DNA of 64,000 nt from Scenedesmus sp. PABB004 (taxonomy: Eukaryota), in the NCBI GenBank assembly GCA_014905635.1, contig JABVCE010000025.1, positions 124,001 to 188,000 of the forward strand. The letters run 5' to 3'. Positions 4,986 through 62,000 of the stretch are shown here, piece by piece; within the stretch, counting starts at the first letter, position 1, and each line of letters starts with the position of its first letter. Below the pieces are notes generated by a model. The model was not told the origin of the DNA. It was given only the letters and a program-made list of their open reading frames with translations, and ran no database searches. The translations under genes were made by a program, and so were the position numbers.

Positions 4986-7900
4986 TCACGCCGCGAGGCT
5001 GAGCAGCAGCGCGGTGCCGCGCATGACCCAGTGCTCCGGCTCCGCGCCGCCGGCGCGCAGGTCGACGGTGGCCATGTAGCTCGGGCGCTCGCGCGCGCCG
5101 CTGCGCGTGGGGTAGAGGTAGAGCGGGCAGGCGTAGTGCCCGCGCCCGGGGCGCTTGCGCGCCTCGGCCGGCTTGAAGTGCAGGATCGGCATCGGCACGA
5201 TCAGCTCCATCGGCGCCGGCTCGCACAGGCAGCCGCCCTCGTAGTCCCAGCCGCCGCCTGCGCGCGCGCGCGTGGTGGCGGAGTGAGCACGCGGGCGACG
5301 CGCAGCGGCGCGCCGGGCGCCGCGGGCCCCGCGCCGGTGGGGGCGTGGCGGCTGACACGTGCGCGGCGCCCCCCGCACCCTCGAGGAAGAGTCCCTTGAC
5401 GTACACGCCCTCCCGCGGCGGCGCCGCGATGCTGCGCTCCTCCGCGTTGACCACGCCGTGCTCAAAGCCGAGGCTGTCGATCGCCACGCCCGACCGCCGC
5501 GCCGTCGTCTGGCGAGCGCGGGCGCGCGGCGGCGGCCGCGTCGGCCAGCGCGCGTGCGCGCGCCGCGCCGCGTCGGCCCCGCAGGCGGGCTGCCACGGCC
5601 ACGCACACACGCACGCGCGCACGCACGTACGCACCTGCAGCACCGCGGTGAGGAAGCCGGTGGGGTATGTGAAGCCGCCGAGCCAGTAGATGCGCGGGTA
5701 GCCGCCATCCGCCCAGCGCGCGAGCTGGTCGAGGCGCGCGAGCAGGTCGCGCGTCCACGCGCCGAGCGGCTTGAGGCTCGGGTAGCACCGCAGCCACACG
5801 GGCGGGACCTTGCCGCCGTACAGCGCGTCAAACACCTGAGCCACACGTGTGAGGCCGCGTGCGCGCGGCGTACGCGGCGTGTGGTGCACTGGCGCCGGCG
5901 AGCGCGCCGAGCAAACGGCCAGCCCTGCCGCACGGCGCTGACCAGCCCTGCCGCACGCAAGCGGGTGGCGCCACCCCCCCCCCCCCCCCACACACACACA
6001 CATACACACACCTGGTCTAGGTCTGCGCTCATGACGACGAGGCCCTTGATGCCGCGCACGAGCTCGGCGCACCCGCGGCGCACCGCGACCAGCAGCGCGT
6101 TGTAGCGCTCGATCTGCAGCACGCCAGCAGCAGCAGCGGCAGCAGCGGCAGCAGCGGCAGCAGCGGCAGCAGCACGCGGGGTTTAGGGCCGAGCGCAGTC
6201 AGCAGGGAGCAGCCGGCGCGCACCGGTGGCCGCCCGCCGCCCGGCCGCCGCAGGGCGTGTGGCGGGGCACCGCCGTCCGGCCTTCCCTCTCGCCGCCAGC
6301 GCCGCCCCTCTCCCTGCCACCCCTCGCTCCCCTTCGCTGCGCCGCGCACCTCCTGGAAGAGCACCACGTGCAGCGCGCTCGGGTCGTCCTGCTTGGCCCG
6401 CATGACCGCCTCGAGGTTGAACGGCGCCGGCACCGTGTCCAGCAGGTCGGCCGCGATCGCCTCCACCAGCTCCTCGCGCCGCCGCCCGCCGCCGGGCGGC
6501 GCGCCGCCGGCGCCGCCCCCGCTGCCGCCGGCGCCCGTGCGCGGCGCGAGGCCCGCGAGGCCCTCCAGCAGGGCCTTGCTGTCCTCGATGAGATAGTTCA
6601 TCTCGGCGTTGGCGTGCTGCCCAAACGCCTCGGGCCTGCGCGGCGCGCGCGGGCCAGGCGCGCGGGTCGGGCGCGCGCCTGCCGCGGCCCGCGGGCGGCG
6701 CCGCGGCCCCGCGCCTGCCGCGGCCCGCCCCCGCCCCATGCCCCATGCCCCGCCGCGCCTGTCTGTCGTGGGCAGCGTCGCGATGTAGTCCCTGAAGCTC
6801 CCGAGGCTCCCCGGCTCGGGGATGAAGTACGCGGGCAGCGGGGAGAGCTTGAAGTTCACGGCCTCCAGCGCGTCCTCGCAGAAGAACCTGCGCGCGCGCA
6901 CACACGTGGCGTCAGCCGGCGGCGCAGCGCGCGGGCAGGCGGGCCGGCGCCAGCACGGCCGGCGTCGGCGGTGCCGCGCGCGGGTGCGAGCGGGGAGGGC
7001 GCGCACCGTGACATGTAGCTCGCCAGCACGCGGCGGTCGAGCTCGTCGGTGACGCGGCCGCCGTAGTTGGCCTCCGCGATGAGGTAGTGCAGCGCCGCCC
7101 AGGGCGTCGGCCCCGGCGCGGCGAGGTAGCTCTTCAGCAGGTCGTCAGACACGCTGGCGTGGGCGTGGGCAGGCAGGGGCGGCGCGGGCGGCGGCGGCGC
7201 GGGTGAGCCGGGGGGGGGGGCTGAGTTGGCGGCGGCGCGGGCGGGCGCGGGTGCGAATGATCGGAATGATCGTTCGCGGTCCGCGCGCCTGAAGTCTGTG
7301 TCGTTGAAGTCGTAGGGCACGTTGAGGCCCAGGCTCCTGAACTTGCGCCGCTCCAGCAGCACGCTGTGGTAGTACGCGAGCGCAAAGAGGAGCTTCTGGT
7401 ACTTGGCTGCGCGGCGCGGGCAGGGCGCGGGGCAGGGCGACGCCCGCGGCGGCGGCGGCGGCGGCGGCGGCTCGCGCGCGTCGGCCTGCCGGCTGCACGC
7501 GCCGTGCCGCGCGTCCGACATGCATGGCGCTGCCCCGCGCGCGGCGCGCGCGCACCGCTCGCGGCGCAGGCGGCGAAGCCCTCCTCGGTTATGCCGGCGT
7601 AGAGGCGCGTGAGGTTGGCGCGCAGGCCCTTGGGCGGCTCGGTCGTCATCTTGAGGCCGCGCTGCAGGATGGACGCGGGGAAGTCGGCGCTCGGCGCGGA
7701 GGAGAGCCAGAGGCGGAAGCGCTCGTGCGGCGCGCCGGCCTCGAGGCCCTCGATCAGCTTCTCCAGCGACGGCAGCCAGGAGGTCATGAGGTGGCAGTTG
7801 GCCAAGAAAACCCAGTGCCCCGCGCGCGCGCCCTCCTCCACCAGGCGCTGCGCGGTCGGCGCCTGCGGTCAGGAGCGGTCGCGGTGTCGGGCGGCGCGGG

Positions 7901-10900
7901 GCGCGCGCAGGAGGGGCGGGCGGGGCGGGCGAGGCGGGCGGGTGAGGGCGCCGCACCCCGCGCGGCGGCGCGCCGCGCGTGCTGTGCCGCCGCGCCGCCG
8001 CGCGCGCGACGCGCCTGGCCCTGGCCAAGCGCGACGGTGTGCAGGCGGCCCGCCATGTCGCGCTCGGCCGCGAGCTTGCGCAGCGGCTCGGTCGGGTCGA
8101 CGCCGGGGGAGAGCACGAAGATGAGCGGCGTGGACGGGCTGGAGGCGGCGAGCGCGTCGCCGAGGTCGAGCAGCGGCGGCTCGACGAAGCGCCGGCCGAG
8201 CGCGTTGGCGACGAACGTCGTCGCCGCAAACACGACGCGGTCGGGGCGCAGGCTGCGCAGCAGGAGGAGGCGCTGCAGCTCGTTGAGCTTGGCCTCCCAC
8301 TCGCGCGGCAGCTCGGCGGCCTCGGGCTCGGGCGCCCGGAACCAGGCCTCCCAGTCGGCCCCCGCGGCGTCGAGGCTGCCCGCGAGGCCCTTGAACGCGG
8401 GCAGCGCGTCCAGGTTCGCCAGGTTGTCCCACGCCGCCTCGCTCACCCAGCCGGGGCAGGGGTTGGGCGGCAGCGCCGAGCGGTCGAGCACCTGCGCCGG
8501 CGGCGCGCATGCGGCCGCCGCTGGGTGCCTCGGCCGCCGCCGCCGCTGCCGCTGCTGTCGCCGCGGCCGCCGCGCACCTGGCTGCCGCGCAGGAAGAAGG
8601 CCCACTCCTCCGCGTTGACCTGCCCCGCCGCCGCGAGCACGCGCACGCACATCTGCAGGCTGAGCAGCAGCTTGTGGCGCTCAAACAGCGCGCGCGCGGC
8701 GTAGGCGTAGACGGCGTAGGTGTGGTGCTCGTTCAGCGCCTTGATGCGCTCGGGCAGGCCCTCCGGCCGCGGGCTGGCCTTGATGCTGAGCGCAAAGAGG
8801 CCCGCGTAGGCGTCGAGGCTGAACTGATACATCGGGTCGACGCCTGACGCGCGGCGTGCGGCGCGGCAGGCGAGCGGGCGGCGCGGCGAGTGTGCGTGGC
8901 GCACGGCGCTGCGGCGCGGCAGCGGCGGCGCGCGGTGCGGCAGGGCGGCAGTCAGCGTGGGCGCACCTGCGAGGTCGTTGAGCACGAAGAACAGCACCGC
9001 CGCGCGCACGCTGCAGGGGCGGTACGCCGCCGCGGCCGCCTCGATCTGCCGCGCCGTGTCCTCCGCGACGCGCAGGCTCTCGATCACCTGCGGCGCGCGA
9101 TGCGCGGTGTCAGCGCCCTGGCCCCAAGCCGCCGCCGCGCGTCTGCAGCCCAGCGGCGGCAGCGGCGGCAGGGAGCGCGCACCTCCTCCCAGGTCGTCTT
9201 GGACGCGTCGAGCGTGTCGATGAGCTCCACGTTGTCCAGCAGCGACCCGCTCGCGTTGGCCAGGAGCTGCAGGATGGTGTCCTCCAGCTCCAGCTGCGTG
9301 CGCTTGCCCGCCGCGACCTGGGCGCCGCGCACGTGCGCGCGCACCGGGCATGAGCGCGGCGCCCCGCGGATGCCGCTCGCGCCCGCGCCCTCGCACGCTC
9401 CTGCGCACGCGCCCGCCCGCCGCCGCACCTTGACCACGAGCTCGCCCTTCTCGCGGTCCAGGTCGGGGCGCTCCGCCTTGACGACCGCCGCGAGCAGCTG
9501 CGCCTCGAGCCCGCTCTCCTTGACCGCAAAGCTGACCACCATCGCGCGCGTGGACACCTCGGGCGCGTAGTGCGGGTTGGCGAGCTTGGTCGACAGGTAG
9601 AGCTTGAACCCGGGCGCCACCTCGGCCTCCTTGTCGCCCAGCTTGACCACCAGCGACGCGCCGCGCCTGCGCGTGCGCGCCGGGCGCGGGAGTGGGGCGC
9701 GCGCGCGCGCGCTGCGCCCGGCGGCGCGCGCGCGCGCGCGGCGGCGGCCCCCTCGCGCGGCGCCGGCGCACCGCACGAAGGCCTTGGCCAGCAGGGGGTC
9801 GAGCACCGGGTCGATCTCCTCGCCCACGCCCGCGAGCAGCACGGGGCGGCCATGCGCGAGCGCGGCCTCGAGCTGGCGCAGCAGGTCGGGCGCCGTCGGG
9901 CTGAGCACGCGCAGCCCTGCGCCCGCCTCCATGCTGCGGATCCAGCGTACCGCCTGGCCCTGAGGGACAGGCCGGCGGCGCCGAGCCGGCCACGGCGGCA
10001 GCGGCGGCGGCGGCGCGCTCAGCGGGCGTGCTGCGCGGCGGCGGCAGCCGCGCCACACGCGCGTGCAATGCGCGGGCGCGCGCGTGCGCGCGTGCGGGCC
10101 GCGCCTGTGGGTCGATCATGAGCGGCCAGCGCCGGCCGCGCGTGACCATGACGCCGTTCTCGGTGCTGAACGCGTCGGCGGGCAGGCCCTGGATGTTCCA
10201 GTCGCGCACGCTCGAGGGGTCGGCCAGGAAGCCGCAGAAGTCAAAGCCCTCGCTGCAGGGGATGCCCAGTGCCTTGACCTGCGCCGCGGGCGGTCAGCGG
10301 CGGACGCATGCGCGCGTGCGCGTGTGTGCGTGCGCGCCGCAGCCGGCCCCGGCCCCACCTGCCCCATCCAGGTGCCCCTGACCAGCTCGTCCCGGAACTC
10401 GCTGGGGAAGGGCCCCGCGTAGCTCAGGAACGCCGCGGCCAGCAGCGCGTCGCCCGGCAGCGCGGCCAGGAACTGCTCGTAGCCCGCGATCGACCCCTGC
10501 CAGCGCACGCGCTCGCCCGCCAGCCCTGCGCCGCGGCGGCGCGCGCGGGCGGGCGTCGGCGCGGTGGCGAGATGATGCTGCGCGGCGTGCGCGCGCGCGC
10601 CGGCACCGCGCCGGGCTGTCAGGCAGCCAGCGAGCTGCGCCGCACCCGTGACGAGTTTCTCCGCGCGCAGCAGCTTGCCCTCCAGGTCGGTGAGCTCCGC
10701 CTCCAGCACCGTCTTGCGCGCGGTGCTCTCCTCGTACCTGCGCCCAGCGCGTGCTCAGCGCAGCGCAGCGCAGTGCAGCGCGCCGCCGCCCCACCAGCCG
10801 GCGTGGCCCGCGCGCGCGCGCGCCCGCCCGCCCCACCTGTCGCGCAGCGCCTTGACCTTGGCCAGCACCGCCGCGAGCGCCTCCTGCGCCGCCGCGAGCG

Positions 10901-13900
10901 CGGCCTGCTTGCGCGCGAGGTTGTCCTGCGCGGCCCGCAGCCGCGCGCGCTTGGGCCCGACGTCCTTCGCGACGCGGCCGTAGACCTCCATTGCCCGCAC
11001 CCACATGCACAGCCCCCGCGCCGCGAGCGAGACCTTGCCCACGGCGTCGGGCGAGAACTCGGGCGCCGCCGTGAGCTTGGCCAGCTTCTTGAGCAGGGCC
11101 TCGTCAAGGCCGTCCTTGTCGAAGTTGAGCAGGCGCGACATGAAGCTCGCGTCCCCGAGCGCCTTCTTGGCCTCCTCCCACGACGGCGGGCGCTTGAGCA
11201 CCGTCATCACGCCCGACAGCGTCAGCTCCACCAGCGCGGGCGGCTTGGAGTAGGCCTGCGCGGAGGCGGTGGCACGGCGGGGGAGCCGTCGGTGCGGGCA
11301 GCAGCTGGCAGCGCAGCCCGCCACACGCAGGGCTTGGAGCTGAGCACTCAGCACTCCGGCCACCTCAGGCCAAAACTCGGCCAAAACTCAGGCCAACTCA
11401 GTCCCCTCAGCGCACCTTGAGCTCGCTGATGTCCTTCTTGGTGAGCACGTTGAGCGCCGCCTCGGCCTCCTCCAGCGCGGGCAGCGCCTTGTCGAGCTCC
11501 GCCGAGACCTGCTGCGCGATCGCGTTGGCCTCCTCCGTCTCCTTGGCAATCTTGGTGGCCTCCGCGTTGACCTGGGCGGGCGCGCAGCGGGCGGCGAGGG
11601 GACGGCGTGTCCGCGCGTGCCGTGCGACGCGCCGGGCGGCGGGCGCGCGGGGCCCCCGCCGCCGCCGGCCTGCCGGGCCCCCGTCGCGCCTGCTTCTCCT
11701 GCTCGTCCGCGACGCGCTTGTCCTGCACGATCTCCACCAGCAGCTCCTCGCAGTCGGCCTTCGCCTGCGTCACCACGACCTGCTTGCCCTGCACCACCAC
11801 CTTCATCTCAGTCACCTGCGCGCGCGTCTCGTCGAGCTTGGCCAGCCCGCCGGTGAGCTTGCCGGACTTGGCCAGCAGCTTCGCGCGCTTCTCCGCCAGC
11901 AGCGCCCTGCGCGGCGGGGACCGCGGCCGCTGTGTCTTCGCGCGCGCGCACGTGCGCGGCGGGCCGCGGCGCGCGCCGCCCTGGCCTCTCTCTGTGGCAT
12001 CGCCGCCCCCGCCCGCCGCGCCTGTAGTTGCGCACGGTCTCCAGGTAGTTGGTGGGCGTGACGTAGTTGCGCCGCCGCAGGCTCGCCCACAGCGCGCGCG
12101 ATGTGCTCTCCACGCTCTGGTGCGCCGTCACAAACATCTGCGTGCGCCGAGCGCGCATGTGAAGAGGGGGCGGAGCTCCGCGCAAGCCCCCGAGGAGCGC
12201 CAGCCCCGCGGGCGCGTAGCCCCGCCCGCACCTTGGCGACCGCTGCCTTGACCTCGTCGCTGCCGAGGCTCTCGCCGGCCATCTGGCGCGTCGCAACCTC
12301 GCACAGCGCGTCGGCGGGCCACTCGCAGAACCAGTCGATCGTCGTCGCGTTGACGAGCCCCGGGAACATGCGCACGCGCTCGCGGAAGGCCTCGCCGACG
12401 GGGCTCAGGCAGAGCACGACGTGCAGGTTGGCCCTGCGCACGCGCGCGCGCGCGCACGGCGGTCAGCGGCAGCGCGGCCCGCGTGCGCCGCGCGCCGCGC
12501 GCCCCGCCTCGCAACCACCCACGCCGCCGCGGCGCACCGCACGCGCTCCAGGAGGAAGGCGGCGAGGTCGTCGGGCGTCTCGCCGGCGCCCGCGGCCTTG
12601 GCGGCGGGGCGCAGCTCGTCGAGCAGCGCGGGCAGCTCGTCGCGGGGGATGAGGTTGGGCACCTCGCCGCTGGTGAGCAGGTTGTTCACGTCCTCCAGGA
12701 ACGCCTCGCACTTGATCTGTGGCGGGGGCAGCGATCGGACGCCAGCGCGCGGGCGCGCGCTGGTGATGCAGCGCGGCGGCCGGCGCGCGGCCGCCGCTGG
12801 CTGCGCGTGCGCGCGCGGCGGCGCGCCTGCGACTCGTCAAAGAGGAAGACGGTGGGCCTGCCCGCGACGCCGGCCTGGCGGACGAGCGCCTTGAGGTCCT
12901 CCCTGAACTCGGCGACCCGGTAGGTCTTGGTTATCTCGAGGCAGAACACGCGCAGCCCCGCGACGTACGCCGCGAGCCGCGCGAGCGACTTGCGCCCGCT
13001 GCCGCCGACGCCCACGAGCAGCGCGTGCCCGCGCGGCTGCGACAGGACGCGGTGGATGCGGCACACGTGGTGCAGCGCGTCCCTGCGGCCCCCAGGTGGC
13101 GGCGGCGGCGGCGGCGGCGGCGGGTCGGCCCTGGGCCCTGGGCCAGCGCAGCCGTCCTTCGCAGCACCCTCAGCGTGCTGGCGCCGCCCCGCCGTGCTGC
13201 CCTCCCTCCCCGCGCCGCACGACGCGCCTGAAGAGCACCAGGTCGAGCGGCGCCGCGCCCGGCTCGAGGCCGTAGTCCTCCAGCTTCTCCGCCAGCACGT
13301 CCTTCAGCGCGGCCATGTCGCGCACCGGCTCGTACGGCGGCGGGTCCATGCCCGGCCGCAGGAAGTTGACGTACGGCGGCACCTGCAGACGCACGCGGCC
13401 GCGCAACGCGGCGTTACGACGGGGGCCGCCTCGGGGCGCCACGCCGCGCGCACTGTGCGGCAGCACGGCGCCGCCCCGCGTGCACGCGCCTGCTCGCCAA
13501 ACTCCTCAAACAGCGCGGCGAGGCTGGTGCCAAACGTCGCGCCCAGGCGCTCGTCGAGCGCGCGGCGCAGCCACGCGACGTCGGCGGCGTCCCACATGCG
13601 GTCGCCGATGCAGCGCATCGCCTCGTGCACCCAGAGCTGCAGCAGGTCCTCCTTGTTATTGCAGAAGGCCTTGCTCACCTGCGATGCGAGCAACACGGCG
13701 GCGGCGGCAGGGCGGCGTCAAGGCCCTCTTCCGCCGCGCGGCCGCGCGCGCGGCCGCGTCCGGCTGCGCCGCCGCGGCGCGGCGCGCGCCTGCATGACGC
13801 CGAGCACGATCTTGGCGAGGTCGCGTGTATTGAAGAGGTAGTGGCTCTTGGCGGGCGTGGGCAGCAGCTCGCGCGACACGGCGCGGTACAGCTCCACGCT

Positions 13901-16900
13901 CGCGGCCACGAGCGGCTCGGCGAGCGGGCGCACGTCATCGTCAAAGTCGGACAGCCGCCCCGACAGCAGCGTGGCAAAGATGCGGCGCAGCGCGCCGTCG
14001 TTGGGCTGCGTCGCGTTGACGGTGCTGAAGACCGCGGCGATTCGGCCGCTGAACGCGCCGCGCCCGCCGCCGGGCGGCGCCATCGCGGCGAGGAGCTGCA
14101 TGTCGCGCACGTGCTTCACCTCGCACCGCGCGCGGTCGTACCTGGCGGGTCGCGGCGCGCGCGGCGGCGCAGTGTGCAGGGTTGAGGTGAGTCGGTGTGC
14201 GCGCGCGCGGGCCAAGGGAGGCGGCGGCTGTTGGTCCAGGGAGCAGCCAGCCGCGACAGCGCACCAAAAGCCGTTGTCGGCCCAGAGCCTGAGCAGCTCG
14301 AGCGGCGGCATGAAGCCGTACTGGGTCTTGGCGGGCATGTTGAGGTCGTCGATGAACGCGACCAGCCGCCGCCCGCCCGCGGGGACGTACACGCCCTTGG
14401 TGCGCTTCTCCAGCTTGCCCTCGAGCGTGTCCTGCGCGCGGCGCGCGGGGCAGGGCCGTTCGGCGCGCGCCGCGCGGCGCGCACCGCGCGCGCAGGGCGC
14501 GACCGAGGCTGCAGCCCGCACGGTCCGGCGCGCAGCGCCGCCCGCCGGCCCGCGCGCCTGCAGCGAGTTGGACGTGGTCTGCGCGCTGAAGTTGATGGTG
14601 CAGTGCGCGCGGTCGGGCGGCAGCGCCTCCAGCAGCGACGTCAGCGTCATGGTCTTGCCCACGCCGACGCCGCCGACGAGCAGCGCGTGCACGCCGGCGC
14701 GCACGAGCGCGCCGACCACAAACGTGTTGCGCGTGGTGTCGACGGTCGGCACCAGCAGGCGGTGCGGCTGGACGTCGGGGCGCGGCTTGAAGCTGCCCGA
14801 CAGCCGCGACTCCCAGCTCTGCCACGACCGGTTCTTGGCGTCCACGCAGTACTCGAACACGGTCTCGGCGCCCGGGTAGCGCGTGTCCATGTCCCTGCGC
14901 GCGGCGCGCGGGCGGCGGGCGGCAGCGCGGCGCAGCGTGGCGCAGCGTGGCGGGCCGGGCTGGGCGGGGGGACGGCGCGGCGGCAGCCAGCGCCGGCGCC
15001 CAGCACGCGCGTCGAGCGCGGGCTGCCGGCGCAGCACGCACGGCACGCGCCCCGCGCACCGCATGAAGGCGTCGAACCGCTTGCGCCCCTCCTCGTCGAG
15101 GCTGCCGCCGAGGCCCCATATGAGGGCGAAGAGGAACCACTGCTCCACGCTCGCCGCGAGCGCGTCGGGGCCGTCGTCGAGGTTGACGCCGTTGTCGCGC
15201 GTCGCGAGCGCGTCAAAGAGACGCGTGAACGTGCGCACGCAGCTCAGGCGGTCCGTCGGCACCAGCTCCCGGCAGTGCAGGCGCTTGTGCTCCAGCGCCG
15301 CGTCCATGTAGCGCTCGATGTGCCGCGCCAGCAGCGCGGCGACCTGCTGCTGCAGCGCGGCCGCGCCGGGCGCGTCGGCGCCGTCGGCGCCGGGCGCAGC
15401 CGCCTTGGCGGCCAGCCAGCTGTTGACAAAGGGCCGCCAGCCGAGGTCCTCGACATTGAGGTAGATCATGCCCGCGCGGCTGACTGTTGCGGGCGAAGCC
15501 TGGCTCAGGTCCTCGACCTCAAACAGCAGCGACACCTGCGCCGGCATCGCGATGCGCTCGCCTGCGGCGCGGCGCACGGGCGGCGGCGCGGTGCGGCGTC
15601 GAGCCGGCGGCGCGGCGCGGGGCTGGGCGGCGCGGTTGGGCGCGGCAGGGCCTGGCGCCGCGTGCGCACCCGAGAGCAGCGTGAGCAGCTTGTTGTCGTC
15701 GAGCGTGGTGTTCATGCTCTCAATCCACAGCGTGTCGACGGGGCCTGAGGCCGGCAGGCGCGGCGCGGCGCGGCGGGCGTGCGGGTTTGAGGCGGCGCCC
15801 GCGCGCGGCGCCACGGCGTGCCGCGTTCACGGTGGACGCAGGCCCCGGGCGCCGAGCCCCACCCCACGGCGGCGCACCGTCAAAGAGGATCCACTTTTGG
15901 TCGGGCGACTCGTCGCGGCACGCGGCGCGCATCGTGCGCGCGAGCACGCCGTCGCGCCACTCGTGCGTGGCCGCGTCGAAGCTGCCGTACAGCTCCTCGT
16001 TGCTCAGCGCGAGCGGGTTGATGGTGTGCACGCTCACGCGCTGAAAGCGGTCGTCGCCGGGGTGCGCCGCCGCGAGGCGGCCGAGCGTGCGCGCGAGGCA
16101 GCGCCACGCCGCGCTTTTGCCCGCGCCGGTGCGGCCGACGATCATGTTGCCGTGCCGCGCGACCTTGCAGTCGAAGATCTGCACCACCTTGGACACAAAC
16201 TCGGGCACCGCCTGCGCGGGAGGGGGGAGAGACAAGGCGTGAGCAAACACGAGCAGCTCGGCGGCGGGGCGTGGGCGCGGGCAGGCGGGCTGCCAGCGCG
16301 CGCGCCGCCGCGCCCCCGCCCGCTCGCCTGCAGGCCCGCGTCGGCGAGGTCGGCCTCGATCGCGGGACGCAGCGCGCCGCCGGCCTCGGGCGGCGGCTCG
16401 AGCCCGGGGAAGAGGTCGGCAAGGAGGGCCATGAAGAGCGGGACGTCCAGGAAGACGAGCTTGGGCCGGATGAGGCCAAGCATGGTCCGGTACAGCACGC
16501 CCTCCTCGCTGCCGTCGGGGTCGGCGCGCCGCAGCGCGCCCGCCGCGCGCGCGATCGGGATGATGAACGACCTGCATGGGAAGGGGGGGGGGGGGAGGGG
16601 CGGCGCCGGCAGCGTCGGCGGGGCCCAGGCGCGCCGCGCGCCTCCCTCCCTCCCAGCGCCGCGCCGCGCCGCGCCCGCGCGCCGCTGCGTCCGCGTCCGC
16701 CGCACCGCAGGCCGTAGTCGTAGTGGTCGCACTTGCTGAGCTGCTGCTGGCTCAGCGCCATGATCGACGTCATCTTGCGCGCGAGGCCGCGCGCGCCGGC
16801 AAAGCCCTCGCTGAACATCATGATCTCAGCGATGAGCGTGAAGTCGGGGGCCATCATGCTCACCGGGCGCAGCAGGGCCTTGAGGTTGTCGGGCAGCTCG

Positions 16901-27401: not shown

Positions 27402-27449
<48 letters not shown>

Positions 27450-28286: not shown

Positions 28287-30878
28287 ATGGCAGCCCTGCT
28301 GCCGCGCCAGGCTGCTGCGCGCCTGGCGGGCCGCCCCGCGCCGGCGCCTGTCCCGCGCGCGGCGCGCCTGGCCCGCGCGCGTGTCGTGCCGGCCAGCACG
28401 GAGCTGCCGCCGGCGCCGGTGGTGGACCAGGAGGGCGAGGACGCGGGGCACTGCGGCATGGACGGTGCGGCCGCGCCTGGCGCGGGGCCGCGGGGGCCCT
28501 GGGGGTCGCGTGCGGGCGCTCACGCCGTGCCGCGCGCCGTCACAGGCACGGTGCTCGTCCGGGAGGCCCCCCAGGGCGTGCAGCGCAACGGGAAGCGCTA
28601 CCACATCCACACCTTTGGCTGCCAGGCGAGCTGCGGCGCGCCCGCGCTGCCGCACGCCCCGGGCGCGCGCGGGCAGCTGGAGACAACTCTCCCACAGCTG
28701 AGGGCGATGCCCGCCCAGCAATGCGGCGCGCCGGCGCCAGCAGCGGCGGCAGCGGCGCCGGCCGCCGCTGCTCGCGCCCGCGCCCACGCGCGCCGCCGGC
28801 GGCGCAGATGAACCTGGCCGACTCGGAGCGCATGGCGGGCGTGCTGGAGGCGGTGGGCTACGAGTGCAGCGAGGACCCGGCAAAGGCGGACGTGCTCATC
28901 TACAACACGTGCAGCATCCGCGAGAAGGCAGAGGTCAAGGTCTACTCGGCGCTCGGCAAGCAGGTGCCCAGCAGCAGCAGCAGCAGCAGCAGCAGACGCG
29001 CCGCGCCGCGGGACACCGCCGCGCCGCGGGGCGAGCCGGCGGCAGCGCGTGCCGCGGCAGCGGTGGGCGCGGCGCGGCCCGCCGACGCGTGTCGCCGCAT
29101 GTGCGTGCGTGCGAATGCCGCAGGCCAAGCGCAAACGCGCGCGCATGGGCGACCTCAAGATCGTGGTGGCGGGCTGCGTGGCGCAGCAGGAGGGGCAGCA
29201 GCTGCTGCGCCGCGTGCCGGAGGTGGACCTGGTCATGGGTGAGCGAGGGCGCAGGGGCGCGGGACGGCGGCGCGGCGGGGCGCGGCTGGCGGCGGCGCGC
29301 GGGCGGGGCGCCGGACGCGGTGGCGGCCCGCCGACGCGCGTGCCGCGCTGCGCGCCCGCAGGCCCGCAGTTTGCCAACCGGCTCGACCAGCTGCTGGAGC
29401 AGGTGGACCAGCAGGGCAGCCAAGTCTGCGCGACGGAGCAGATCGAGGTGCGCAGCACCGCCGCGCACGCGCGCCACGCGCCGCTTGCGGCAGGGGCTGT
29501 CGGGCGCGCGCGGCCGGCCGGCTGGCCAGCCACCCACGCCGCGCCGCGCCCGCGCCCGGGCCGCCGCAGATCAGCGAGGACATCACGGTGCCGCGGCGCG
29601 ACAGCGCGCTGACCGCGTGGGTCAACGTCATCTACGGCTGCAACGAGAAGTGCACCTACTGCGTCGTGCCCTTCACGCGCGGGCAGGAGCAGAGCCGGCG
29701 CGTGGAGGAAGTGCGGCGCGAGATGCTCGCGCTCGGCGAGGCGGGGTACAAGGAGGTCACGCTGCTGGGGCAGAACGTGGACGCGTACGGCCGCGACCTG
29801 CCGGGCATGGCGCCCGACGGCAGCGGGCGGCGCGCGCACACGTTCACCGACCTGCTGCGCGCCGTGCACGACGTGCCCGGCATCGAGCGCATCCGCTTCG
29901 CGACCTCCCACCCCCGCTACTTCACGGGTGCGCCGCGCCGCGCTGCGCCGCGCGCGCTGCGCCACCCTCGGCCTCGCCCTCGGCCCGTGCCGCCGCCGCT
30001 GGTGCGCCCGGCGCCGCCCCGCTGACTGGTGCGCGGCGGCCCCGCAGACCGCCTGGTGCGCGCGTGCGCGGAGCTGCCCAAGCTGTGCGAGTTTTTCCAC
30101 ATCCCCTTCCAGTCTGGCGACGACGACGTGCTGCGCCGCATGGCGCGCGGCTACACGGCGGCGCGCTACGTGAGCATCATCGACAACATCCGCCGCCACA
30201 TGCCCGACGCCTCCATCAGCGGCGACGCGATCGTGGGCTTCCCGGGTGCGGCGGCGGCGGCGGCGGCGCTGCGCTGCGGCGCTGTGGCGGCGCGGGGCGA
30301 CGCGCGCGCGCGCGGGGCAGAGAGGGGCCGCCCGGCGCGCGCTCGCGAGCTCATCACGCCCGCGGCCCCCCGGCGTCGCGCGCACGGGCGCGCGCGCAGG
30401 CGAGACGGAGGAGCAGTACCTCGCGACCGAGGCGCTCGTGCGCGCGGTCGGCTTTGACCGCGTCAACACCGCCGCCTACTCGCCGCGCCCAAACACGCCC
30501 GCCGCGGAGTGGGAGGGCCAGGTCGCCGACCTCGTCAAGGCGGACCGCCTCAACCGGCTCAACGCGGTCGTGAACGAGGTCGCGACGGAGCGCGCGCAGC
30601 GCTTTGCGGGGCGCACGCTCGAGGTGCTCGTGGAGGGCCCCAACCCCAAGGCCGCAGGCCAGGCGTGCGGGCGCATCCGGCACAACAAGCTCGTCTACTT
30701 TGACGGCGACGGCGACGCGCTGCGGGGGCAGCTCGTGGCGGTCAAGGTCGGGCACTGCAACGCGTACAGCCTCTTCGGCGACCTCGTCGAGGTGCTGCCG
30801 CCGCGCGCGCCGCTGCCGCACGCAGGCGCCGCCGCCGCCGCCGCCGCGCCGCCGCCGCCGCCGCTCGTGGCGGCGTGA
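28287..30878 (+). CDS. miaB: tRNA-2-methylthio-N6-dimethylallyladenosine synthase (radical SAM methylthiotransferase), organelle-targeted, 8 exons
   Basis: [36 protein letters not shown], radical [49 protein letters not shown] and a C-terminal TRAM domain. Confidence 0.95.
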
Positions 30879-32312: not shown

Positions 32313-32353
<41 letters not shown>

Positions 32354-45318: not shown

Positions 45319-45349
<31 letters not shown>

Positions 45350-45499: not shown

Positions 45500-45534
<35 letters not shown>

Positions 45535-51470: not shown

Positions 51471-51517
<47 letters not shown>

Positions 51518-55504: not shown

Positions 55505-56089
55505 ATGCGGCCGCGGCGCCTGGCGCTGCTGCTTGTCGCGGCGGCGTGCGCCTGCAGCGGCGCGCGCGGCGCCGGGGCGGGGCGGCAGCTGGCGGACCAC
55601 ATCACGCACGTCTACGAGCCCGGCGAGGTCGTCACGCTGTACGCCAACAAAGTGGGCCCCTACCACAACCCCAGGTGCAGAGACACGGCCCGCTGCGGGC
55701 AGCCGGCGCGGCCCGCGCGCGCGCGGCGGCCGCCGCAACCGCCGCTGCGCTGCCGCCGTAGCGAGACGTACCAGTACTACACGCTGCCCTTCTGCCTGCC
55801 CAAGGATGGCAAGCAGTACGTGACGGAGGACCTGGGCGAGGTCCTGGAGGGCGACCGGCTCGTGAACACGCCGTACGAGATAAAGTTCCGCACCGACGTG
55901 GAGGCCGCGGTGCTGTGCACCAAGACGCTCGGCGCGGAGGAGCTGCGCAAGTTCCGCGCCGCCGTGGCGCAGGACTACTACTTCCAGGCGCGCCGCCCGC
56001 CGCGGCCAGCACGGCAGCACAGCAGCGCGGCGGTGGCGCTGCGAGCCGGCTCGGGCGCACGCGGCGACGCTGCCGCCGCCCAGCAGTGT

Positions 56090-56123
<34 letters not shown>

Positions 56124-58792
56124 GGGCGCCGCAGATGTTCCTGGACGACGACCTGCCCGTGTGGGGCTTCCTGGGCAAGACCGAGCGCGCGTCGTCGACG
56201 GCCGGCGGCGCCGCGGGCGGCGGCGCGGGCGGCGGCGTGCGGACGTACCTGTTCACCCACTTTCACTTTGACATCGCGTACAACGGGCCCCACGTGATCG
56301 AGGTCAACGTCTCCACGAGCGCCGGCGACGCGGCGCGCACGCGCGACATCACCGACGCGGACTCGCTCGACGCGGCGTTCAGCTACAGCGTCAAGTGGCG
56401 CCCGACCGGCGTCGACTTTGACGACCGCATGGACCGCTACAGCCGCAACTCCTTCCTGCCGCAGCACCTCGAGGTCGGCGCGCCGCGCGCGGGCATGGCC
56501 GGGCCGGGCCCGGCCCTGCCGCCGCGCGGGGCGGGCGGCGCCGCGCGCCGCCCCTCGCCGGCCGCCCACTCGCCACGCACGCCGCGCACGCGCGCGCCGC
56601 CGCCACCGCCCCCCTGCCTCCCCCCTTAATCTCTTGATCAGATCCACTGGTTCTCCATCATCAACAGCTGCGTGACGGTGCTGCTGCTGACCGGCTTCCT
56701 GACCACCATCCTGCTGCGCGTGCTGAAGAACGACTTCCTCAAGTACAACACCCGCGACGACGAGGCGGGCGAGGCGGAGGACGAGACGGGCTGGAAGTAC
56801 CTACACGGCGACGTCTTCAGGCGCGGCAGGGCGCGCGGGGCGTGCCAGCACGCGCCGCGCAGCGCACAGCACGCGCAGCGCACCGCACAGCAACGCGCAG
56901 CATGCGCCGCGCCGGCCCGCCGCTCATGCCGCGCCGCGCCGCGCCGCGCCGCTTGCCGCGTGCTGGGCCGCAGGTTCCCGCCGCAGGTCAACCTCTTTGC
57001 CGCGATGGTCGGCGCGGGGACGCAGATCACGGTCATCGCCGTGTCGGTGCTGGCCCTGGCCCTGGTGGGCACGTTCTACCCCTACAACCGCGGCGCGATG
57101 CTCTCCGCGTGCGTGGTGCTCTACGCGCTCACCGCGGGCGTGTCGGGTGGGTTGCGGGCGGGGCGGGGGGAGGGGCCGCCGCGCGCCGCGCGCTGTGCGC
57201 GCTGCCCGCCACGCCCCGCGCCGCGCCGCCCACGCGCTACCTCGCGCCGCCGCCGCACACCGCCACCACCACACCCACGCTCAGGCTACACGTCTGGCGT
57301 GTGGTACAAGATGATGGGCGGCCGCGCCTGGATCTCCAACGTGCTGCTCGTGTCGGTGCTCTTCTGCGGCCCCCTGCTCGCCGTGTTCAGCGTGCTCAAC
57401 ACCATCGCCTGGGTGCAGGGCTCCACGCAGGCGCGCGCCCACCGCCGCGCGCGCGCCACACCCGCACCGCGGCGCCAGCGCCGCCGCGCCGCGCTGTGTG
57501 ACCGCCGCCGCCGCCGCGCCCGCCGCCGCTGCCAGGCGCTGCCGTTTGGGACGATCGTCATCATCATCGTCATCTGGGCCCTGGTCACCTTCCCGCTCAC
57601 CGTGCTGGGCGGCATCGCCGCCAAGAACAGCGCGCACGAGTTCCAGGCGCCCTGCAGGCGCGCGCGGCCGCACGCGCGCGCGCGCGCGCGCGCGCGCGCC
57701 CTGCCCGTGCTGCGCCCTCCCGCGCGCGGGCCCTGCCCATGCGCCGCCCTCCCGCTGAGCGCGCGCGCGCGCGCGTCGCCGCTTGCAGGACGACCAAGTT
57801 CCCGCGCGAGGTGCCGCCGCTGCCGTGGTACCGCGAGGCGCCGGCGCAGATGGTCATGGCCGGCTTCCTGCCCTTCAGCGCGATCTACATCGAGCTCTAC
57901 TACATCTTCGCAAGCATATGGGGCCACAAGGCGCGGCGGCGCTGGGCGCGCTGGCCGCGCTGGGCGCGCTGGCCGCCGTCCGCGGCCGCCGCGCCCGGTC
58001 AAAAGCGCCCCGCCCGGGGCCCCGCCCCTCGGGCCTCGCCCGCTGGCTCGCGCACTCAGCTAGCTCGCTCACTCACTCGGCCCGCTCACTCACGCGCTCT
58101 CCCGCCCGCCCGCCCGCGCCCCTTCTCTCTCCCTCCTCCTGCAGCTGTACACCATCTACTCCATCCTGTGCATCGTGTTCATCATCCTCATCATAGTGAC
58201 CGCGTTCATCACCGTCGCGCTGACCTACTTCCAGCTCGCGGCAGAGGACCACCGCTGGTGGTGGCGCGCGTTCCTCTGCGGTGCGGCGCCGCCGCCGCCG
58301 GCGGCGGCAGCGCCCCTCTCGCCGCTCACCGCCGCCGTGCGCGCCCCGGCCGTGCCCACTGACACGCCCACGCCCCGCCCCGCTCGCCGCGTTCGGCGCT
58401 GCTGCTGCTGTCTCGCGCAGGCGGGTCGACCGCGCTGTTTGTGCTGGGCTACTGCATCTTCTACTACCACTACCGGTGTGTGCGCCCGCGCGCGCGCGCG
58501 AGCCCCAACCGGGCCCGGCGGCGCGGCCGCAGCAGCCCGGCGCTGCGCTCGGGCGCGCGCCGCGCGCGCGCCCCCAGCCAGCGGCGGCGGCGTGACGCAC
58601 GCCGCTGACGCGCGCCGGCGCGGCCGCCGCGGGCACCGCAGGAGCGAGATGCACGGCCTGCTGCAGACGGCCTTCTTCTTTGGCTACAACGGCATCGTCT
58701 GCTTTGCCTTCTTCCTCATGCTCGGGAGTATAGGCTGGCGCGCGAGCCTGCTGTTCGTGCGCAGCATCTACAAGGCCATCAAGTGCGAGTGA
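55505..58792 (+). CDS. Transmembrane 9 superfamily (EMP70/TM9SF) protein, 11 exons
   Basis: Signal peptide; [74 protein letters not shown], and C-terminal IYKAIKCE* (KxD/E motif). Confidence 0.96.
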
Positions 58793-59033: not shown

Positions 59034-62000
59034 TCAGCCGCGCGTGCTGTACGCGTGCGATTCGCTCCAAGCAAACGACCCGTCGTCGTAGGTCGCCTTT
59101 ACGCAGCAGATCACCTCGGTGCCAGGGCGCAGCCCGCCCACGACGCGGCTCAGCGCGCGGCCCGAGTACGCCTCGCGCGCCACGCCTGCGCGCGCGCCCG
59201 GGCGGCAGCAGCCGGGCTGGCCGCCCACGCCCCGCGAGCCTGCATGCACCGCGCGCGGCAGCGGGGGCGGGCGCGCTGCAGCGGGGGGCGGGCGCACCTC
59301 GCGAGGCGACCATGAGCTTGTACGACGTGATGCGCTCGCTATTCTTGCTCGGCGGCCGCCACGCGACCTCCACGCTGCTCGCGGTCACCGCGCGCGCGTC
59401 GGGCAGCAGCTCCAGCCGCTCCACCTGCCCCGCGGCGGCGGCGCGAGCCGACTGTGGGGCCGCCGGACCGCAGCCGAGGCTCTTGGCTCGGCGCGTGCAG
59501 CGCAGCACGCGCAGCGGCGCGCGCGCCTGCTCGTCGCGGCGCCTGCCAGCCGCGGCGAGGCGCGCAATGTCCTCCGGCAGCGTCAGCTCCGTGATCATCA
59601 CCTCGTCCAGCTGCTCGTGCACGTTGGGCAGGAGCGTGTAGAGGCGGCTGCCGTGCACCGCCGTCGCACACGAGCTCTGCGCAGCCGGGCGGCGGTCGGT
59701 GCAGCTTGCAGCACACAGCACGCGCTCCGGCCGCCCGCTCGCCGCCGCGCGCGCGCTGCGCGCCTGCTTGAGCCACACCAGGCCCTTGGCCCACTCGCCG
59801 TCGTCCAGCTGCTCCCACGCGGGACCGTCAAAGATGCTGAGCACGTGCGTGTCGGTCAGCCGCCGCCCGCCGCCGGCGCCACCGTCGCCGCCGTCGCCGC
59901 CGTCGGCCGCGCCGCTGCCGGGCGCCTGCAGCTGTGCCGCCGGCGCGGGCGCCGCGGCGCCGCAGCCGCCGCTGACCACGAGGTACTTGCCGCCAAGGAC
60001 CGCCGCGGCGTGGCCCTCGCGCGGCTCCGGCGCCACACCACTCGGCGTGACGGCGCTCCAGACCAGTCTCTCCACGTCAAGGTAGTGCACGTCGTTCTGC
60101 GGCGACCCCCACACGCGGCGGCGGGGGTTGGCGCCCGGCGGCTGCACGTGTGCACACGCACGGCGGCACAGGGCCCGCGCCGCCCCGCGCGTGCGTGCGC
60201 GTGCGTGCGCCGGCGCGTGGTCATGCCGCACCAGGTGCCGCCGGCCGTCGTGGCCGCCGACGAGGTACAGCCGGCGCCCGTCGTCGGTCGCGCACAGCGA
60301 CGCGCCCTTGCGCGGCGACGGCACGGCGCCGCTGGCGCTGTGGCAGCTGAGGTGGCTCCACACGCCGCTCTCGAGGTCCAGCGACCACACGTCGTTCAGC
60401 AGCAGCCCCGCGTAGCTCATGCCGCCGAAGACCAGGACCTGCGCGCCGCGGCCGCGGTGCTCGCGCTCGGGTGCAAGCCACCCACGCGGCCGGGCACCGC
60501 CGGCCGGCGGCGCAGCTGGTCCTGTCTCGCACCTTGTCGCGCAGCGCCGCCGCGGCGTGGCAGAGCCGCGGCGACGGCTGGCTGGGGCCGGACGAGGCGA
60601 CGGCGGTCCAGCGCACGTGCTGCGCCGCGCACGCGTCGGGCAGCACCATCGCGGCCGACGTCGCCTCGTCGCCGGTGCTGCCACCAAAGACCAGCAGCTT
60701 GCGGCCCCCGACCGCCGTCGCGGTGTGGCCGAGCAGCGGCGCCGGCTGCGTCGCGGCGGCGCCGTCCGGCTGCTCCCAGGTCAGCGTGTCCAGGCTGAGC
60801 ACCGCCGTCTCGCGCGCCACGCCCTCGTGGCTGCGCGACTGGCCGCCGTGCAGCACGAGCTGCTTGCCGCCTGCGGGCGGGCGGCGACAGGCACGGCGGC
60901 CGCCAGCGCGCAAGGCTCAGCGGGGCGGCCGCGCGCCGCCACCCAGCTGCCGCGCGGCCGCCAGTGCACACGTGTGCGCACGCACGCGCACGCCCCACCT
61001 GCCAGCGCCGCCAGGGCGTTGAACTCGCGGTCGTGCGGCACCGAGCCCTTGAGGCGGTGGCGGCTCGTCGCCACGAGCCACGGCTCGCCAAAGAGTATGC
61101 GCAGCTGCGTCGCGGCCTGGCAGCGCATGCTCAGCTCCGCGATCTCTGACCTGCGCAGCCGCGGCCGCGGGCGCGGCGGTGCTTCAGGCTGCCGTGGCGT
61201 GCCGCTGGTCAGCAGCGGTCAACAGCCGCCGCCGCTCGGGCGGCTGCCGCCCACAGTCGCGCAGCCGCGCACCGAGCCTTGTCCAGCGCCGCGTCCTTGG
61301 CGTCCAGGTGGGCCCTCGCGACGCGGAGCTCGGTGCCTCTGCTCTCGATCAGCGCGTGCTGCTCCTTCACGGCCGCCTCCAGCCGCTCCTTGTCCTGCAG
61401 CAGCCCCGCCGCGTCGTCCAGCTGCGCCGCCTGCGCGGCGTTGGCCTCCTGCAGGCGGGGCGGGGGGCGGGTCGCGCGCCGCGCCCCCGGGCGCGCGCGG
61501 CGCTCTGCCGGCCGGCGCGCGTGCGCGCGCGCCTTGAGCCGCGCGATCTCAGCGACGCCGCCCGCGAGCTCGGCCTGCAGCCGCTCGAGCTGCTGCGCCA
61601 GCGCCGCGCCGCGCGCGTCCGCCGCTCGGGCCTGCTCCTGGCGGAACGCCAGTATGTCCTGGCAGTCGTGCGTCGCCGCCGCGATGCGCGCCTTGCAGGC
61701 CGCCACGTCTGCCAGCAAGCGCTCGTTCTCCGCCTTGAGCTGCCGCGCCTTGTCCACCATCATGGCGTGCCCCAGCTCCAGGTCCTGGTTTGCGGCGGCC
61801 AGCGCCGCGAGCTCCGACGCCAGCCCGGGCCTGCGGCGGCGCCGCGCGGCGGGCGGCGTCGCGCGGCTGCCCGCCGCCGCGTGCCGCTGCGCCTGCATCA
61901 CGCGGCTGCCCGCCGCCGCGCCCCGCGTCACGCGGCTGGCCGCGTGCCGCGCCCCGCGTCGCGCGGCTGCCCCGGCGCCGCGTGCCGCCGCGCCCCGCGC

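Follow-up and report, generated by a model that had tools for sequence, protein, structure and literature searches.

A cytosine at position +2 of an intron mismatches U1 snRNA, and the available parts of PMC3167603 and PMC2490688 describe how the remaining donor site compensates for it. In human, MAG/GCAAGT donors (MAG being an exon that ends in CAG or AAG, and the slash the border between exon and intron) were reported by Burset (2000) and Thanaraj & Clark (2001), as cited in those same parts of the two papers. Minigene data in the accessible part of PMC12805630 indicate that active human GC donors read [C/A]AGgcaagt and that +2T>C is tolerated at strong sites only. GC-AG introns average 1.2% across 121 plant genomes (PMC6310983). 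Donor shares of 56–65% GC in Emiliania huxleyi (PMC4028052) and 14–17% in pelagophytes (bioRxiv 10.1101/2024.10.30.620910) are explained by high GC content in the available portions of these two reports, and a dependence of GC donors on the exon end is not described in those portions of their main text.

The window studied here, i.e., the whole 64-kb stretch of DNA that was analysed, is nuclear DNA of a green alga with about 78% GC (75–85% in 2-kb bins), and its closest protein matches come from the Sphaeropleales and Chlamydomonadales. Seventy-eight introns were placed by homology across three genes, namely those for an I1-beta dynein heavy chain (61 introns), a TM9SF protein (10) and a MiaB-like protein (7), and 26 of the 78 (33%) are GC-AG introns (Table 1).

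Placement of introns

Orthologous proteins were aligned to the DNA with a purpose-written spliced aligner that makes no use of exon context. Thirteen reference proteins entered the dynein alignment, in which GT and GC donors were given equal cost, and a control mode permitted all 16 dinucleotides as donor. All counted junctions are placements inferred from protein homology in three genes of this one 64-kb window. The best solved-structure match of the dynein gene is the Chlamydomonas I1 dynein-1-beta chain, and its Pfam matches are to dynein domains. Pfam EMP70 matches run contiguously over the exons of the TM9SF gene, and Kelch repeats (Pfam) lie in the exons adjoining the intron predicted at 61449..61532 in a Kelch-repeat gene.

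Each of the 10 TM9SF introns is backed by 12–13 of 13 references, all-16 mode included; six of the MiaB-like introns are backed by 13/13 references and the one at 28465 by 9/13. In the all-16 control of the dynein gene (reference P0134), 62 introns were inferred, 55 of them precisely at consensus GT or GC sites, and 18 of the 20 GC donors were recovered. The intron at 13679..13789 moved by 5 nt in this control and has a shifted GC alternative in 3/11 references. Once the 61 consensus introns are removed, the dynein gene has a single reading frame that stays open for 13,032 nt up to a stop.

Exon ends before GC donors

The first-pass annotation had proposed that every GC donor follows an exonic CAG or AAG, over a range that extends from the low coordinate of the dynein intron at 6636 to the donor of the predicted Kelch-repeat intron at 61532. 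All 26 verified GC donors do so (CAG 22, AAG 4), a record that leaves room for an exception rate of up to ~11% (95% confidence). When positions -3..-1 are tabulated against +2 over the 78 pooled introns, MAG ends are followed by 26 GC and 16 GT donors and non-MAG ends by 0 GC and 36 GT donors (Fisher p = 5.5e-10); that is, MAG precedes 26/26 GC donors versus 16/52 GT donors. Judged from the sequence, the observation that GC donors occur solely after CAG or AAG is confirmed for the verified introns. It had also been claimed that exons ending in GAG (about 10 cases) or in non-AG always use GT, and this holds for all 36 non-MAG ends, GAG included. The GAG cases are few, with five verified GAG/GT junctions, four further ones that are predictions only, and no verified GAG/GC; the nine together agree with the earlier figure of about 10.

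The dynein gene has 41 GT and 20 GC donors, the latter after CAG (17) or AAG (3). Its MAG ends are followed by GC 20 times versus GT 14 times, and all 27 non-MAG ends use GT, three of them being GAG/GT (donors 22240, 9182 and 6349) and 24 other. The tally of 21 GC versus about 14 GT first given for MAG ends in this gene stands in its GT count and in 20 of its GC donors, the 21st (26168) being a prediction only. The TM9SF gene has five MAG/GC, one CAG/GT (55675), one GAG/GT (56474) and three other GT donors, and the MiaB-like gene one CAG/GC, one CAG/GT (28964), one GAG/GT (29448) and four other GT donors.

In DNA of 78% GC, GC dinucleotides are plentiful (2089 within the dynein exons alone), and the rule would be circular if donors had been accepted only at consensus-like flanks. 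A content-only gene finder does often slide donors to nearby GCs, placing only 19/30 and 20/30 introns exactly. The aligner, however, took no account of the flanking exon, nor, in its control mode, of the dinucleotide, and it reached MAG/GC at 18/20 dynein and 5/5 TM9SF GC introns. Just 42 of the 2089 exonic dinucleotides (2%) are preceded by MAG, which excludes chance, and the motif MAG/GC[GA][CA]G marks 20 real donors in the dynein gene versus two sites within exons and three within introns. Moreover, 16 of the 26 GC introns have a length that is not a multiple of 3 and are needed for the frame, which is open in the dynein gene as described above. No in-frame GT lies within 30 nt at 15/26 GC introns, and four introns are without any GT, so the GC donors are obligatory and not the aligner's choice. 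An artefact of intron inference is thus largely refuted, and we regard it as extremely improbable.

Possible exceptions are of three kinds. Each of nine GCG/GT junctions has an in-frame GC 3 nt upstream, which is favoured by a minority of references at 21985 (3/9 versus 4/9 for GT) and at 16708 (2/12 versus 9/12 for GT). These two upstream GCs would violate the rule if they were the true donors; the GCG/GT junctions were counted as GT because they carry the GTGCG motif and most references favour GT there. A context-blind gene finder called 27 non-MAG/GC donors in genes without homology verification, and six of six checkable gene-finder calls of this type proved wrong. Forbidding non-MAG GC donors cost 8–17 nats at three loci in a low-complexity region at 48–50 kb, and these loci may be candidate exceptions.

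Table 1. Genes and GC-AG introns of the window, with the donor context written as exon end/intron start.
Feature	Position	Strand	Donor context	Gene	Basis and remarks
I1-beta inner-arm dynein heavy chain gene, homology-verified part	4989..25562	-			61 introns
TM9SF / EMP70 gene	55600..58792	+			10 introns; Pfam EMP70 + spliced alignment
MiaB-like methylthiotransferase gene (UPF0004 + Radical SAM + TRAM), verified part	28400..30878	+			7 introns; Pfam + spliced alignment
GC-AG intron	23125..23253	-	aag/GCGCGG	dynein	spliced alignment
GC-AG intron	22404..22489	-	cag/GCGAGG	dynein	spliced alignment
GC-AG intron	21311..21426	-	cag/GCGCGC	dynein	spliced alignment; without any GT
GC-AG intron	20409..20491	-	aag/GCGCGC	dynein	spliced alignment
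GC-AG intron	20074..20205	-	cag/GCGCGC	dynein	spliced alignment
GC-AG intron	19248..19368	-	cag/GCGCGC	dynein	spliced alignment
GC-AG intron	18179..18291	-	aag/GCACGC	dynein	spliced alignment
GC-AG intron	17897..18028	-	cag/GCACGG	dynein	spliced alignment
GC-AG intron	16212..16327	-	cag/GCGAGC	dynein	spliced alignment
GC-AG intron	14432..14557	-	cag/GCGCGC	dynein	spliced alignment
GC-AG intron	13679..13789	-	cag/GCGCGC	dynein	5/11 references
GC-AG intron	13383..13489	-	cag/GCGCGT	dynein	7/11 references
GC-AG intron	13083..13227	-	cag/GCGCGT	dynein	spliced alignment
GC-AG intron	12717..12826	-	cag/GCGCGC	dynein	spliced alignment
GC-AG intron	11907..12021	-	cag/GCGCGG	dynein	spliced alignment
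GC-AG intron	11572..11689	-	cag/GCGCGA	dynein	spliced alignment
GC-AG intron	9960..10104	-	cag/GCGCGG	dynein	spliced alignment
GC-AG intron	7863..8014	-	cag/GCGCGT	dynein	spliced alignment
GC-AG intron	7154..7288	-	cag/GCGCGC	dynein	spliced alignment; without any GT
GC-AG intron	6636..6758	-	cag/GCGCGG	dynein	without any GT
GC-AG intron	55988..56134	+	cag/GCGCGC	TM9SF	spliced alignment
GC-AG intron	56821..56973	+	cag/GCGCGG	TM9SF	spliced alignment
GC-AG intron	57431..57535	+	cag/GCGCGC	TM9SF	spliced alignment
GC-AG intron	57658..57788	+	cag/GCGCGC	TM9SF	spliced alignment
GC-AG intron	57931..58144	+	aag/GCGCGG	TM9SF	spliced alignment
GC-AG intron	28626..28807	+	cag/GCGAGC	MiaB-like	spliced alignment; without any GT
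Predicted GC-AG intron	61449..61532	-	ctcaag/GCGCGC	Kelch-repeat	gene finder only
Predicted GC donor	26168	-	ctcaag/GC	dynein, N-terminal part (unresolved by homology)	gene finder only

Donor motif and splicing machinery

On the intron side, positions +3..+5 read GCG at 30/36 non-MAG/GT, 8/16 MAG/GT and 21/26 MAG/GC donors. All 26 GC donors read GC[GA][CA]G, and +3 is G at all but four of the 78 donors, two of these being MAG/GC (+3..+5 ACG) and two GT (CGG). As GC donors are enriched in MAG while their intron side is no better than that of non-MAG/GT donors, the compensation is exonic only. The motif is more relaxed in MAG/GT than in non-MAG/GT donors (p = 0.019), which points to a trade-off or continuum and not to the two donor classes that the first-pass annotation had envisaged.

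GT and GC introns do not differ in length (medians of 120 and 119.5 nt, respectively, for the dynein gene) or in acceptor (CAG at 77 and TAG at one of the 78 introns), which argues for one machinery. U12-type donors read /[AG]TATCCTT and are accompanied by a matching branch-point box. This type was rejected for the GC introns, as none of the 26 donors reads TATCC and lengths and acceptors match those of the GT introns.

A variant U1 snRNA, or a U1-independent U5/U6 route, dedicated to MAG/GC would suit a rule that is categorical (26/26), GC donors as frequent as 33%, and the acceptance of A and rejection of G at -3, which canonical U1 pairing fails to explain. Two separate donor classes of this kind are nevertheless unlikely, given that GC and GT introns have their +3..+6 motif, length and CAG acceptor in common and that the graded relaxation of the motif in MAG/GT donors suggests a continuum. 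A preference for T at +2 after MAG, set out below, is also unexpected for a dedicated reader that pairs with C. No snRNA genes were found in the 64-kb window.

Selection at position +2 and the role of the exon end

The strong GC-ward pressure that had been invoked is borne out by a GC3 of 97% in the spliced dynein coding frame and a GC content of 85.6% in introns. After MAG, +2 is C in 26/42 donors (62%), versus a C/(C+T) of 89.5% in the G_G context of introns (binomial p = 2.5e-6), and T is about four times commoner than in the intron background. T is therefore still favoured after MAG, and C is tolerated, not neutral, which contradicts the earlier suggestion that +2 becomes nearly neutral there. 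If equilibrium is assumed, scaled selection S may be about -1.7 at sites that follow MAG, as opposed to less than -6.4 at the others.

With such a clear GC-ward bias in the genome, neighbour-dependent mutation alone might be thought to yield C at +2 after MAG with no selection by splicing. However, the neighbours of +2 are G and G at 74 of the 78 sites and the distinguishing bases lie 2–4 nt off, while the contrast between 0/36 C at non-MAG sites and 89.5% C in the G_G background requires strong selection. This explanation is disfavoured and has very little probability in our view. GC donors could also be maintained for their weakness, as sites where splicing is regulated or the intron is left in, which has been put forward for animals and plants, and not arise passively from GC pressure. 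According to the available parts of PMC2490688, they are enriched in alternatively spliced genes of human, nematode and Arabidopsis, and in those of PMC4028052 the GC donors of E. huxleyi are accompanied by high intron retention. Here, one third of introns are GC in three genes that are unrelated to one another and serve housekeeping or structural functions, a pattern that site-specific regulation would hardly produce, and exon context and GC pressure fully predict where GC donors occur; regulation is thus quite an unlikely reason for their presence.

We consider it probable that these are ordinary major-spliceosome (U2-type) introns, in which exon end and intron start share the strength of the donor and GC pressure gives rise to MAG/GC. 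The intronic donor motif of this lineage, G[T/C]GCG[C/G], would pair poorly with U1 snRNA past +1/+2 and +5. After any exon end other than CAG or AAG, the donor would need both U at +2 and the complete GTGCG motif; after these two, the exonic contacts, presumably with U1 positions 9–11 early in splicing and then with U5 loop I and Prp8, would suffice, and the site would tolerate either a C at +2 or degeneracy at +3..+5. Very strong AT-to-GC pressure, whether mutation bias or biased gene conversion, would replace T by C at +2 where the site is tolerant and nowhere else, this direction being the presumed one, with about one third of introns becoming GC-AG, all of them MAG/GC. The association, the obligatory GC donors, the relaxed MAG/GT motif and the residual excess of T at +2 are direct observations.

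The exonic match had been described as perfect, yet AAG falls short of full complementarity to U1. By canonical pairing count AAG/GC (four seen) equals GAG/GC (0/5), so U1 pairing alone leaves the effect of -3 unexplained; the contrast between AAG and GAG is weak (p = 0.10 for verified junctions, 0.02 with predictions included). It is conceivable, if rather doubtful, that -3 acts in this lineage as a categorical gate for GC donors, where C or A permits and G forbids and canonical pairing of the U1 5' end is insufficient. Such a gate, if true, would imply that U5 loop I, Prp8 or an altered U1 reads the exon end in a way specific to this lineage, and information encoded in the exon alone would decide whether one third of introns can lack the U that is nearly universal at +2. 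Overall, the initial interpretation is partly supported: the dependence of a C at +2 on the exon end is real and very strong, and it fits the established compensation principle in the available parts of PMC3167603, PMC2490688 and PMC12805630.

Comparison with known systems

Like the human U2-type GC-AG introns described in those parts of the literature, the introns studied here combine a GC donor with an AG acceptor and a [C/A]AG exon end, the same spliceosome is presumed, and C at +2 is tolerated solely where other donor positions are strong. By their sequence features, the GC-AG introns of the window would be classed as U2-type (GC start and AG end in 26/26, with compensation on the exon side). 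They differ in frequency, with 33% of verified introns versus ~1% GC-AG in human and plants, and in where the compensation lies. Human GC donors, as far as the same sources describe them, compensate also intronically (AAGT at +3..+6), whereas here +3..+6 read GCG[C/G] in GC and GT donors alike and the whole compensation is exonic, which is why the rule looks categorical.

The likeness to E. huxleyi and the pelagophytes, as portrayed in the available portions of their reports, lies in a high GC content, a large GC-AG share and an acceptor that is still AG. Those organisms are a haptophyte and stramenopiles of ~65% GC or less, whereas this is a chlorophyte of ~78% GC, as estimated from one 64-kb window. 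With 33% GC-AG introns at 75–85% GC, far above the usual 1%, the window matches this GC-donor-rich algal pattern. Abundant GC donors in GC-rich algae are thus already known, to the extent that these portions document them. The rule by which a donor site compensates for C at +2 has likewise been described before, in human introns and other introns of the GC type, and the present window shows it with unusual clarity and frequency.

Gene content and composition

G+C content lies between 75% and 85% in each 2-kb bin of the 64-kb window, above the highest Sphaeropleales value, 72.4%, in the sections of PMC7354681 consulted. The genes are eukaryotic, intron-rich and tightly packed on both strands. 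About a dozen were outlined across the whole window by our gene finder, and Pfam searches of the predicted exons (positions 1-64000) gave the list below. The long minus-strand frame carries dynein Pfam domains, and its best solved-structure match is the Chlamydomonas I1 inner-arm dynein-1-beta heavy chain (E = 1e-101). Three genes, the I1-beta dynein, TM9SF/EMP70 and the MiaB-like methylthiotransferase, were verified by homology, and the closest proteins found for them are from chlorophycean algae (Haematococcus, Dunaliella, Chromochloris, Raphidocelis and Monoraphidium).

Genes outlined in the window, with the basis of each assignment
Feature	Position	Strand	Basis
D-2-hydroxyacid dehydrogenase	about 2926-4900	-	Pfam, predicted exons
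I1-beta dynein	4989 to about 26600 (verified part 4989-25562)	-	Pfam, homology
MiaB-like methylthiotransferase	about 27000-30878 (verified 28.4-30.9 kb)	+	Pfam, homology
Coiled-coil protein	31177-33162	-	Pfam, predicted exons
Nup54	33579-35347	-	Pfam, predicted exons
DAGAT-like gene, weak	35892-39632	+	Pfam, predicted exons
eIF3h	39640-41416	-	Pfam, predicted exons
OST3/OST6	42014-43581	+	Pfam, predicted exons
Large low-complexity protein with UCH domain	44390 to about 55000	+	Pfam, predicted exons
TM9SF	55600-58792 (verified 55.6-58.8 kb)	+	Pfam, homology
Kelch-repeat protein	59034-62057	-	Pfam, predicted exons
Ankyrin fragment	63389-63854	-	Pfam, predicted exons

Third codon positions in the dynein model are 97% G+C, with 1% A and 2% T. 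Introns of the verified genes are 85.6% G+C and 80-236 nt long (median 123 nt); their acceptor is CAG in 77 of 78 cases, and 52 of the 61 dynein introns are followed by an exon that opens with G. The stretch from 48000 to 52000 stands at 81-85% GC with a strong A-over-T skew (0.29-0.44). Here the gene finder returned implausible "introns" of 300-1000 nt with non-consensus GC donors, and its models are unreliable; probably the stretch is coding sequence of low complexity, or it spans the boundary of a gene.

Placement of introns

Introns were placed by spliced alignment of proteins to the DNA, using a dynamic-programming scheme (BLOSUM62, affine gaps, all three intron phases and exact split codons) in which the acceptor was fixed as AG, GT and GC donors carried an equal penalty and exon context was ignored. 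For dynein, 13 reference proteins were aligned and an intron was kept where 40% or more of the references spanning it agreed. The exception, the intron at 22240 (2/9 references), was retained since the gene finder had independently picked the same site. This gave 61 dynein introns between 25277 and 5258; once they are removed, a single frame of 13,032 nt runs uninterrupted to a terminal stop. The seven MiaB-like introns were supported by 13/13 references in six cases and by 9/13 in one.

As a control, all 16 dinucleotides were permitted as donor. With the full-length dynein orthologue P0134, 55 of 62 introns fell exactly on the same GT or GC sites, 18 of the 20 GC donors among them; the remaining two GC donors were displaced by 5-6 nt. 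With the partial predicted protein P0005, 14 of the 19 GC donors that it covers were hit at the exact site. Each of the ten TM9SF/EMP70 introns was found by 12-13 of the 13 references, whether or not the donor was restricted to GT and GC.

The dynein N-terminus above 25562 lies outside all counts, as the references disagree there. For these roughly 200-300 residues (25562 to about 27300, minus strand) homology gave no model, and the gene finder predicted three further introns, at 26496 or 26523, at 26168 (ctcaag/GC, the slash marking the exon-intron boundary) and at 25990 (caccgg/GT). A candidate intron of 48 nt, in frame within the dynein AAA lid (15350-15397, minus strand; gcggct/GCGCCC...CAG), was dropped, having 3/12 references and boundaries that vary between them; it is probably a small lineage-specific insertion rather than an intron.

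GC donors follow CAG or AAG

One intron in three opens with GC (26/78, 33%): 20 of 61 in dynein, five of ten in TM9SF and one of seven in the MiaB-like gene. The first-pass annotation had claimed that GC donors occur solely after exons ending in CAG or AAG (together, MAG), and all 26 homology-placed GC donors bear this out, 22 following CAG and four AAG. GC and GT donors number 26 and 16 after MAG ends, and 0 and 36 after all other ends (Fisher p = 5.5e-10). These other ends are GCG (9), CGG (8), GAG (5), ACG (4), AGG (3), CCG (2) and, once each, GCA, ACC, ATG, TTG and TGG. At the dynein MAG junctions homology gives 20 GC against 14 GT; the earlier count of 21 and about 14 thus stands save for its twenty-first GC donor, at 26168, which is a prediction. 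Its "about 10" GAG ends, all with GT, are close to the present 0 GC and 9 GT with predictions added (0/5 GC among verified junctions).

The length of 16 of the 26 GC introns is not a multiple of three, for 15 the nearest in-frame GT is more than 30 nt away or absent, and four introns lack GT over their whole length, indicating that the GC donors were not the aligner's pick among alternatives. Nor can chance explain the pattern, since MAG precedes just 42 of the 2089 GC dinucleotides (2%) inside dynein exons. The 8-mer MAG/GC[GA][CA]G marks 20 real donors versus two sites in dynein exons and three in introns. At the homology-placed junctions, the association of GC donors with MAG is correct and statistically overwhelming.

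Predictions in the unverified genes

The gene finder was trained on the dynein model and combined a coding model (3-periodic, order 2) with a model of introns and opposite-strand shadow states; its weight matrices covered +3 to +8 and the acceptor, leaving it blind to -3 to -1 and to +2. Two-fold cross-validation on dynein placed 27/30 and 28/30 introns exactly. In the unverified genes it called 11 MAG/GC, 9 MAG/GT, 4 GAG/GT, 25 other GT and 27 non-MAG/GC donors. The last group is deemed unreliable because all six such calls within verified genes were wrong. A local ban on non-MAG GC donors returned the finder exactly to the homology-verified site at 6/6 loci, at a cost of 0.5-3.1 nats, and for most of the unverified calls an alternative obeying the rule exists at small cost. 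Three low-complexity loci at 48-50 kb lose 8-17 nats under the ban and may be exceptions to the rule.

A test on sequence content only was dropped in favour of homology; in it, the total loss was 108 nats when non-MAG GC donors were banned and just 198 when MAG GC donors were. In-frame GC dinucleotides are always close by, so a compositional gene finder has no discriminating power.

What reads the exon end

The first-pass annotation attributed the rule to a perfect exonic match, the exon end pairing with U1 snRNA and U5 loop I. Pair counts against the canonical U1 5' end sequence are equal for AAG/GCGCG, which is seen, and GAG/GCGCG, with 0 donors. The GAG/GCGCG string occurs three times inside dynein exons, never at a donor. 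AAG and GAG differ at p = 0.10 among verified junctions and p = 0.02 with predictions, and MAG and GAG at p = 0.013 among verified junctions. Given equal U1 pairing, either a factor besides U1 pairing recognises position -3 or the effect is one of small samples. An Rfam scan of the 64-kb window matched no snRNA gene.

Proposed exchange of donor information and selection at +2

GT and GC introns have G at +3, C at +4 and G at +5 in common, and their median lengths in dynein are 120 and 119.5 nt. This likeness in motif, length and acceptor suggests one machinery for both rather than two, and speaks against the "two donor classes" of the first reading. The GCG motif occupies +3 to +5 in 30 of 36 non-MAG/GT donors and in 8 of 16 MAG/GT donors (p = 0.019), and in 21 of 26 MAG/GC donors, the other five of which have A at +3 or +4. 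Donor information would thus be exchanged between exon and intron: the relaxed motif at MAG/GT junctions suggests that, where the exon end is strong, a single weak position in the intron can be tolerated, and +2 may be that position. Tolerant sites would then drift to C at +2 under the extreme GC pressure (GC3 97%, introns 85.6% GC).

The +2 position after MAG had been thought nearly neutral. However, C stands there in 62% of cases (26/42), versus 89.5% C/(C+T) in G_G context inside introns (p = 2.5e-6). Assuming equilibrium, C after MAG would face weak selection, with S about -1.7, and C elsewhere strong selection, with S below -6.4. Among the phase-1 dynein introns, 1/12 has MAG and 0/12 a GC donor; 97% GC3 makes A at -2 nearly impossible in this phase, and many exons would be unable to gain MAG. 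As far as sequence can tell, what is at work is in essence the compensation rule already known, under extreme GC pressure.

Relatives in metagenomes

Two freshwater metagenome DNA runs from one study, compared with positions 5001-25000, yielded low-depth contigs of 170-420 nt mixed with unrelated GC-rich DNA. They typically differ from the window by 1-2%, and some by up to 6%, few enough differences to indicate that the organism or a close relative is present in that kind of freshwater sample. Among 40 of the 174 differences, none falls at a donor +2 position.

One scan of metagenome contigs for TM9SF gave 80 loci, none above 69% GC. The GC-rich loci aligned are intron-poor and their consistently placed introns are all GT; the metagenome TM9SF loci are not close relatives. 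In eight marine loci (L025, L027, L030, L031, L037, L040, L057 and L074) the single or first intron has a gag/GT junction, and the TM9SF gene of the window likewise has a gag/GT intron, at 56474 (plus strand).

Significance and comparison with known systems

A predictor that admits GT-AG introns alone would get roughly one intron in three wrong in such genomes; the first E. huxleyi gene set was mis-modelled under that assumption (PMC4028052). The rule "GT anywhere, GC only after CAG or AAG", which corrected all six testable loci, is a candidate for inclusion in predictors aimed at ultra-GC-rich algae. The window also offers a natural experiment, in which extreme GC pressure would have driven +2 to C wherever splicing permits, so that the pattern shows at each intron whether its exon context is able to offset the lost +2 U. 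This readout comes from a system whose intronic donor motif adds little U1 pairing.

GC-AG introns average 1.2% over 121 plant genomes (PMC6310983). In E. huxleyi 56-65% of donors are GC (PMC4028052), and for two pelagophytes the share is 14-17% (bioRxiv 10.1101/2024.10.30.620910), ascribed in both cases to high GC content. Functional human GC donors, natural and mutation-created, read [C/A]AGgcaagt, and human +2T>C variants splice normally solely at otherwise strong sites (PMC12805630). In literature searches that extended to Sphaeropleales genera and Chlamydomonas, no listed paper described GC donors as abundant in a chlorophyte or gave, in its text, an exon-context rule for GC-donor-rich algae. 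For GC-AG introns the principle at work is textbook knowledge, and the present case is a clean, extreme example that would not surprise a specialist. What is new, on the evidence of this one window, is the lineage, the frequency of one intron in three and a compensation that is wholly exonic, so that the rule looks absolute.
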